Origin: a virus | Lineage: Duplodnaviria > Heunggongvirae > Uroviricota > Caudoviricetes | IMG/VR virus record: IMGVR_UViG_2563366840_000001 | Reading direction: 5' to 3' (one strand) | Length of the DNA: 64,000 bases | Part shown: in pieces, positions 32,212 to 32,402 of the stretch | Position numbering within the stretch: the first letter of the stretch is position 1 | Layout of the letters: every line of letters starts with the position of its first letter | Made by a program: the position numbers and the translations under genes | The notes under the pieces: model-generated | Database searches by the model: none | The model's input: the letters and a program-made list of their open reading frames with translations, nothing else | What the model was told of the DNA's origin: nothing

Positions 32212-32402
32212 TCCACCCAGGCGTGCTGAATGTCAGATATATGATTAGACTTGAGATAAATGACAGGGGATAAGTGAGATAATTATGGGAAGTACTGGGT
32301 CAACATGGGAAGAGACTGGATGGAATATGCAATAACCTTACAGTATGTGAAAATAAGACTGGCCCGAAAAAAACAGAACTCGCACCAGCCTGATTGCAGA
32401 TA

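Follow-up and report, generated by a model that had tools for sequence, protein, structure and literature searches.

Within the 64,000-nucleotide stretch of DNA analysed here (the window), ban, the helicase gene of a P1-like plasmid prophage, lies directly beside mor, the last early gene of a transposable phage, and the questions are how these two genes came to adjoin and what controls ban in this setting. The interval between them (32212-32402) is the gap separating the longest ban open reading frame, which starts with GTG at 32211, from the mor stop codon at 32403-32405; the ATG annotated for ban in P1 is at 32205. A sequence-only reading had placed the left end of a prophage in this gap. 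Comparison of the window with P1 (NC_005856) by BLAST located the P1 homology in positions 1-32241, inverted relative to the reference, and none from 32242 to the end of the window. The last P1-aligned base, 32241, corresponds to P1 71259, and ban is 98.9% identical to P1 72669-71259, the annotated gene occupying 71295-72659. The insertion point is P1 71258/71259, between trnI and ban and 36 bp upstream of the ban ATG. The proposed left end is thereby borne out: P1 homology ends at 32241 and a transposable prophage begins at 32242. The interval holds the exact left end of a BcepMu-type transposable prophage inserted into a P1-like plasmid, and our reading, to which we assign a probability of about 0.9, is that the ban operon of the P1-like plasmid prophage was the target of a transposing BcepMu-like prophage. 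The features on which this reading draws are listed in Table 1.

Table 1 Features on the two sides of the junction, in window coordinates.
Feature	Position	Strand	Details
ban, P1 DnaB-like replicative helicase, 454 aa	30841..32205	-	Pfam DnaB_C E=6e-108, DnaB E=3e-35
Native P1 ban leader remnant, including GGAG ribosome-binding site	32206..32241	-	36 bp, P1 alignment
Predicted copy of the target-site duplication, GATATA on + strand	32236-32241		P1 71259-71264; 6-bp duplications in three intact relatives
BcepMu-like transposable prophage, left terminus TG at 32242 to window end	32242..64000	+	
Terminal repeat L1, GAGATAAATG	32253..32262	+	positions 12-21 from terminus
Terminal repeat L2, GAGATAATTA	32276..32285	+	positions 35-44; 23 bp from L1
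Left-end-specific direct repeats ATGGGAAGTACTGG (32285-32298) and ATGGGAAGAGACTGG (32305-32319)	32285..32319	+	
Candidate intrinsic terminator of early operon	32347..32391	-	hairpin 32356-32391, then UAUUUUCAC at 32347-32355
mor, Mor-family transcription activator, last early-operon gene	32403..32792	-	Pfam Mor E=1e-42; BcepMu gene 1 in same position
gemA-like gene	32789..33217	-	Pfam GemA E=4e-41
AAA ATPase, counterpart of transposition helper protein B	35844..37010	-	Pfam AAA_22 E=3e-20; RefSeq homologue annotated ExeA family
DDE (rve) transposase, Tn552/IS1604 type	37021..38790	-	Pfam rve E=2e-7
Small HTH regulator near early-operon start ("Ner" of the sequence-only reading)	39712..40017	-	Pfam HTH_IclR E=1e-6
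Divergent HTH_3/CI-type repressor candidate of the prophage	40231..40737	+	Pfam HTH_3 E=1e-10, Phage_CI_repr E=1e-5

A 1.2-kb query centred on the junction split exactly at 32241/32242, its left half matching P1-like plasmids and its right half chromosomal prophages. The two halves were found joined in none of 5,426 complete E. coli genomes and in none of the PLSDB plasmids, and a search for the left junction in a genome contig collection gave no match. An identical left junction is present in the IMG/VR contig UViG_3300045988_115882, whose prophage part stops after about 380 bp.

The P1-like side of the window departs from P1 in several other places. P1 homology is broken at 30543-30830, between ban and a dbn-like gene, and a 100-aa open reading frame (30539-30841, minus strand) lies directly downstream of ban. 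The backbone segments 12073-12900, 14251-17332 and 20082-21384 have little or no similarity to P1, and the pmgT-pmgV region of P1 is replaced by open reading frames at 13881-16597. Between c1 (3134-3985, plus strand) and pacB (5708-7192, minus strand) lies a 1.7-kb segment (3986-5709) that is absent from this place in P1. It encodes a 370-aa open reading frame (4018-5130, minus strand) with 70-81% DNA identity to P1 ant, and a 73-aa open reading frame (5127-5348, minus strand) occupies the place that icd has upstream of ant in P1, an assignment made by position alone. A strong C1 operator (5688-5704, 22.6 bits) precedes both frames, and the segment looks like an immI-like antirepressor module adjoining c1.

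Positions 32242-64000 are colinear with, and 98.8-99.8% identical to, a 34,661-bp prophage in narU of E. coli 730V1 (L005); their identity to a classified Bcepmuvirus, Escherichia phage PhiKM, is 89-91%. The leftmost 600 bp are 100% identical to chromosomal copies. The sole stretch of the prophage without a megablast-level alignment to L005 is 39202-39430, inside the DUF3102 gene (38794-39702), which looks like a locally diverged segment. Intact copies measure about 34.7 kb, so that the right end of the present copy is expected near 66.9 kb, outside the window.

In 640 of the 5,426 complete E. coli genomes, at 705 places in all, the alignment to the prophage begins at base 32242, and the genes that flank this same terminus, among them narU, dsdX, cysE, ycaL and ygjJ, are unrelated to each other. 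A common first base combined with unrelated flanking genes is the signature of the terminus of a transposable element. The copy in cysE is a degraded prophage and was used for the left end only. All three intact relatives are flanked by 6-bp direct duplications (CCCTGC, CACATT and TTCTTC). The element thus inserts at many unrelated sites, and the 6-bp duplication is a property seen in its relatives (3/3), the right end of the present copy being outside the window; for this copy the duplication is a prediction. The type of element is already known and very common, and what is unusual here is only its target, a phage-plasmid and, within it, the ban operon.

Ten chromosomal copies were examined for their surroundings, and two of them adjoin tail genes of other prophages, apparently as insertions in another prophage. 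The right end of one (L018, 13613 onward) is followed by a tail-fibre and P2-like tail cluster, and that of the other (L023, 13430 onward) by a tape-measure gene; these flanks indicate that insertion of phage into phage is not rare for this element. Related copies were also observed on plasmids that are not P1-like: one (L013) lies next to arsR in the 290-kb Citrobacter freundii plasmid p1_CFTMDU (1590), and another (L014) in a 142-kb IncFIA/FII plasmid of Enterobacter kobei. A further record, Klebsiella phage KP12 clone KP12_2 (OM835952.1), is filed under Vequintavirinae, while in genes and DNA it corresponds to a BcepMu-like transposable prophage. It begins inside the left end, lacks about 55 bp at the right end, and is probably host prophage sequence that was deposited together with the phage.

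The element starts with TGATTAGACTT, the TG occupying 32242-32243. Its right end, ...GCGCGGCGCATCA, was identified in 11 independent copies, each time with a different flank and ending GCGCATCA/...ATCA at the 11 sites. The left start and these 11 right ends together define the termini as TG...CA, as described for the BcepMu-like family (PMC2628397, PMC2771037). Two sets of direct repeats follow the left terminus, and the sequence-only reading had likened them to transposase-binding ends. One set consists of TGAGATAA at 32252 and 32275, with a spacing of 23 nt, and the other of ATGGGAAG at 32285 and 32305 (positions 44 and 64 from the end), with a spacing of 20 nt; the two copies of the latter extend to the longer repeats of Table 1, which differ by a 1-nt indel. 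All of the repeats that had been pointed out are present, and the two sets behave differently when whole copies of the element are considered. Across the 34,661 bp of L005 there are just four matches to G[AC]GATAA[AT]T, at positions 12 and 35 of each end and in inverted orientation, with the left-end copies on the top strand and the right-end copies on the bottom strand. In BcepMu, whose overall DNA is unrelated, the termini are TGAAG and G[AC]GATA[AT][AT]T is found at positions 12 and 35 of both ends. Within the window alone GMGATAAWT has 4 matches against 2.2 expected, which is not significant; the significance of the repeat rests on its position in intact copies of the element and not on its frequency in the window. 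The GAGATAA repeats are conserved terminal repeats, and are likely to be binding sites of the transposase.

The ATGGGAAG repeats belong to the left end only, none of the 11 right ends having a copy within its last 300 nt, and for them the likeness to transposase-binding end repeats is not supported. The 15-mer ATGGGAAGNNACTGG is rare even when one mismatch is allowed (0.08 occurrences expected). The second copy of the left-end repeat is kept as ATGGGAAGAGAC at about position 62 in the diverged left-end variant shared by the Enterobacter plasmid copy and KP12, and its retention there suggests that it may serve a function. In BcepMu itself, ACGGAACGG occurs twice within positions 45-90, 17 nt apart and just inside the second terminal repeat, in parallel to the ATGGGAAG pair.

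From the left end the genes of the prophage follow in the order mor, gemA, AAA ATPase, rve transposase, DUF3102 gene and HTH gene, and then the divergent HTH_3 repressor gene. The early and regulatory genes are on the bottom strand and read toward the left end, with mor last, and the late genes are on the top strand. The transposase scores 31.4 bits against rve, marginally under the Pfam gathering cut-off of 32.6; its counterpart in BcepMu, gp09, carries the annotation Tn552/IS1604 rve transposase, and the transposase and its adjacent AAA ATPase are ordered as gp09 and gp08 are in BcepMu. In BcepMu, too, the Mor homologue (gene 1) adjoins the left end, with gemA, the ATPase, the transposase and regulators behind it, while the repressor gene and every late gene are on the top strand. 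Genes 1-13 of BcepMu were likewise described on the bottom strand, in an element with terminal CA dinucleotides and a transposase of the Tn552-IS1604 family (PMC2771037). A left end occupied by mor, with an early operon that reads outward, is thus the norm of the family and is neither a truncation nor specific to this locus. It is because the family layout places mor at the left end, where the prophage meets P1, that mor stands beside ban.

The second question is that of control. In the C1-controlled class a 17-bp asymmetric operator, ATTGCTCTAATAAATTT, overlaps a sigma-70 promoter, and the interval falls outside this class. The sequence-only reading had reported no C1 operator upstream of ban, and a proper motif scan agrees. 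A weight matrix was derived from the C1 operators in the annotation of P1 (NC_005856), 20 in all, of which 19 score 15-29 bits and the weakest, Oc1b, 7.5. The matrix recovered 13 sites scoring 15 bits or more in positions 1-24700 of the window. Its best score in 32212-32402 was 0.7 bits; in 32150-32450 it was 6.7 bits, for a site located inside ban; and nothing above 11.7 bits was found across 32242-64000. As an argument about this locus the missing operator is nevertheless uninformative. This account of ban regulation in P1 rests on the annotation of NC_005856, in which positions 68667-68696 hold the divalent operator Obanab/Op72 together with the promoters P1ban and P2ban. The ban gene itself (71295) follows 2.6 kb downstream, after a dicF-like region, trnA, trnT, tciABC and trnI (70933-71008). 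With Op72 that far upstream, the 190 bp next to ban should be free of operators in every P1, and the contrast drawn earlier with other early promoter regions has no bearing here.

The insertion itself bears more directly on the control of ban. The linkage of ban to its C1-controlled promoter is lost, and to this extent the earlier proposal that ban escapes C1 control stands. A prophage of about 35 kb would separate ban from its only annotated promoter and operator (P1ban/Op72), and a transcript from P1ban, entering the prophage at its right end, would have about 24 kb of late genes to traverse in antisense on the way to ban. We infer that ban is effectively disconnected from C1-controlled transcription, and its expression would then come from whatever passes the end of the early operon or from weak promoter-like sequences in the end of the element.

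The other part of the proposal, that transcripts from the prophage early promoter read through mor and the left end into ban, with Mu-like repressor control replacing that of C1, is less straightforward and in our view doubtful. It was correctly noted that ban and the Mor-to-HTH operon are co-directional, both being on the minus strand; only 197 nt separate the mor stop codon from the ban ATG, and the ribosome-binding site of ban is intact. A hairpin followed by a U-tract, beginning about 12 nt past the mor stop codon, speaks against free passage. This hairpin, AGGCUGGUGCGAG...CGGGCCAGUCU, has a stem with an internal mismatch and a 10-nt loop, and a predicted energy of -17.6 kcal/mol (RNAfold; z = -2.4, with 2 of 200 shuffled sequences as stable). 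An equivalent hairpin is kept in the variants L008 (91% identical) and L013 (86% identical), and the L014/KP12 variant has in the same place, after its last early gene, an unrelated GC-rich hairpin, GGGGGGCAUCGUCCCCC, followed by UUAAUUUUC, so that the position is conserved even where the sequence is not. Only the local hairpin stands out, the fold of the whole 208-nt mor-ban spacer being not unusually structured (z = -0.4), and an Rfam scan of 31800-33000 returned nothing meaningful. A simple consensus scan of the minus strand reported no terminator, this hairpin included, which leaves room for read-through, and intrinsic terminators are seldom complete. The untranslated stretch could also permit Rho-dependent termination, and repression would keep the early promoter silent in a stable lysogen. 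Judged by its predicted fold, the hairpin with its U-tract probably terminates the early operon. Read-through of the early transcript into ban is possible and, because the candidate terminator directly follows mor, is probably weak or limited.

An outward promoter within the left end would instead give constitutive, C1-independent expression of ban, resembling the bac (ban-constitutive) phenotype of P1. Two sigma-70-like matches are present on the minus strand, TTCACA-16-CATATT (32351-32324) and TTCCCA-18-CATAAT (32311-32282). Both agree with the consensus at only 9 of 12 positions, and the three matches in the region, against 1.0 ± 0.9 in shuffled sequences, are unconvincing; we regard such a promoter as improbable. 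A plus-strand candidate in the end (TTGAGA ... GATAAT) was rejected for its 21-nt spacer. We likewise give little credence to the broader idea of a rewired ban, expressed by read-through upon induction of the Mu-like prophage or constitutively from the end of the element. Were it true, replicative transposition could draw on a phage-encoded replicative helicase, the product of ban, or the host would show a bac-like phenotype; the composite, too large for the P1 headful, would also hold the P1-like element in a plasmid-only existence.

To return to the insertion of a BcepMu-like prophage into the ban operon, we take it to be a simple one, whose right end and second copy of the duplication would lie beyond the window. 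Such an event would give a right junction near 66.9 kb that reads GCGCGGCGCATCA, then GATATA, then ATCGGCATACTCAAATCAC. Exact-pattern scans of viral contigs for this predicted junction (right end, GATATA and P1) gave no match, and in metagenome contigs they gave two chance matches that are unrelated to P1 or to the prophage. The tail protein I gene was also used to seek a right end flanked by P1 among contigs that encode it, and all ten places found were chromosomal. That the junction is one side of a plasmid-chromosome cointegrate formed by replicative transposition, or an assembly chimera, would agree with a right end outside the window, with the absence of the predicted right junction from every collection scanned and with a plasmid location for only 1 of the 705 places at which complete E. 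coli genomes carry the element, but is very improbable, for the break falls exactly at the terminal TG as in hundreds of real insertions, which a chimera through a shared repeat would not give, about 32 kb of contiguous sequence lie on either side, the identical junction recurs in another public contig, and even in a cointegrate 32242 would remain a true prophage end.

The insertion should be tolerated, since a CRISPRi screen of P1vir classed each of ban, dbn, tciABC and trnI as non-essential (PMC10695390). For annotation, the analysis supplies the exact boundary (32241/32242) between a P1-like phage-plasmid and a transposable prophage nested in it, a boundary that explains why mor abuts ban and that corrects the expectation of a C1 operator close to ban. 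The nested arrangement is uncommon, yet it is an expected outcome of near-random transposition. A composite of about 128 kb would exceed the headful size of P1. Should the composite prove genuine and stable, the P1-like element probably could not be packaged because of its size, which would be a case of one phage disabling another.

Four known systems can be compared with this locus. With the P1 ban operon (Op72/Obanab, dicF-like region, tRNAs, tciABC, trnI, ban and dbn) it shares ban and its 36-bp leader, which are about 98-99% identical; unlike in P1, the operon is split by a prophage between trnI and ban, and its promoter and operator fall outside the window. Phage Mu, with its attL and the MuA-binding sites L1-L3, is similar in having a TG terminus, multiple repeats of the transposase-binding type, Mor and GemA homologues and, as seen in relatives of the present copy, near-random insertion with a short target duplication. 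The present element differs from Mu in that its transposase matches rve only (Tn552/IS1604 type, not MuA), which places it outside Muvirus in the strict sense, and in its inverted early region, with mor instead of the repressor adjoining the left end; the target duplication is 6 bp in relatives of the present prophage and 5 bp in Mu. The ends of Tn552 carry two directly repeated motifs about 23 bp apart that are bound by an rve-family transposase, and its insertion generates a target duplication of 6-7 bp. The 23-bp spacing of the repeats measured here matches this geometry, whereas the end sequences have no similarity and the present element is a complete phage.

The closest known systems are the BcepMu-like phages (Bcepmuvirus: BcepMu, phiE255 and PhiKM) and the related E. 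coli prophages, such as the one in ycaL of ST131-type strains. They share with the present element the TG...CA termini, the paired terminal repeats (positions 12 and 35 at either end), the bottom-strand early operon that ends in gemA and mor, the rve transposase with its AAA ATPase, the divergent repressor, and the lysis, head and P2-like tail genes that follow the repressor. In the E. coli lineage a tail-fibre invertase is encoded near the right end, unlike in BcepMu. From the chromosomal BcepMu-like prophages the present copy differs only in its location, in a P1-like plasmid prophage.
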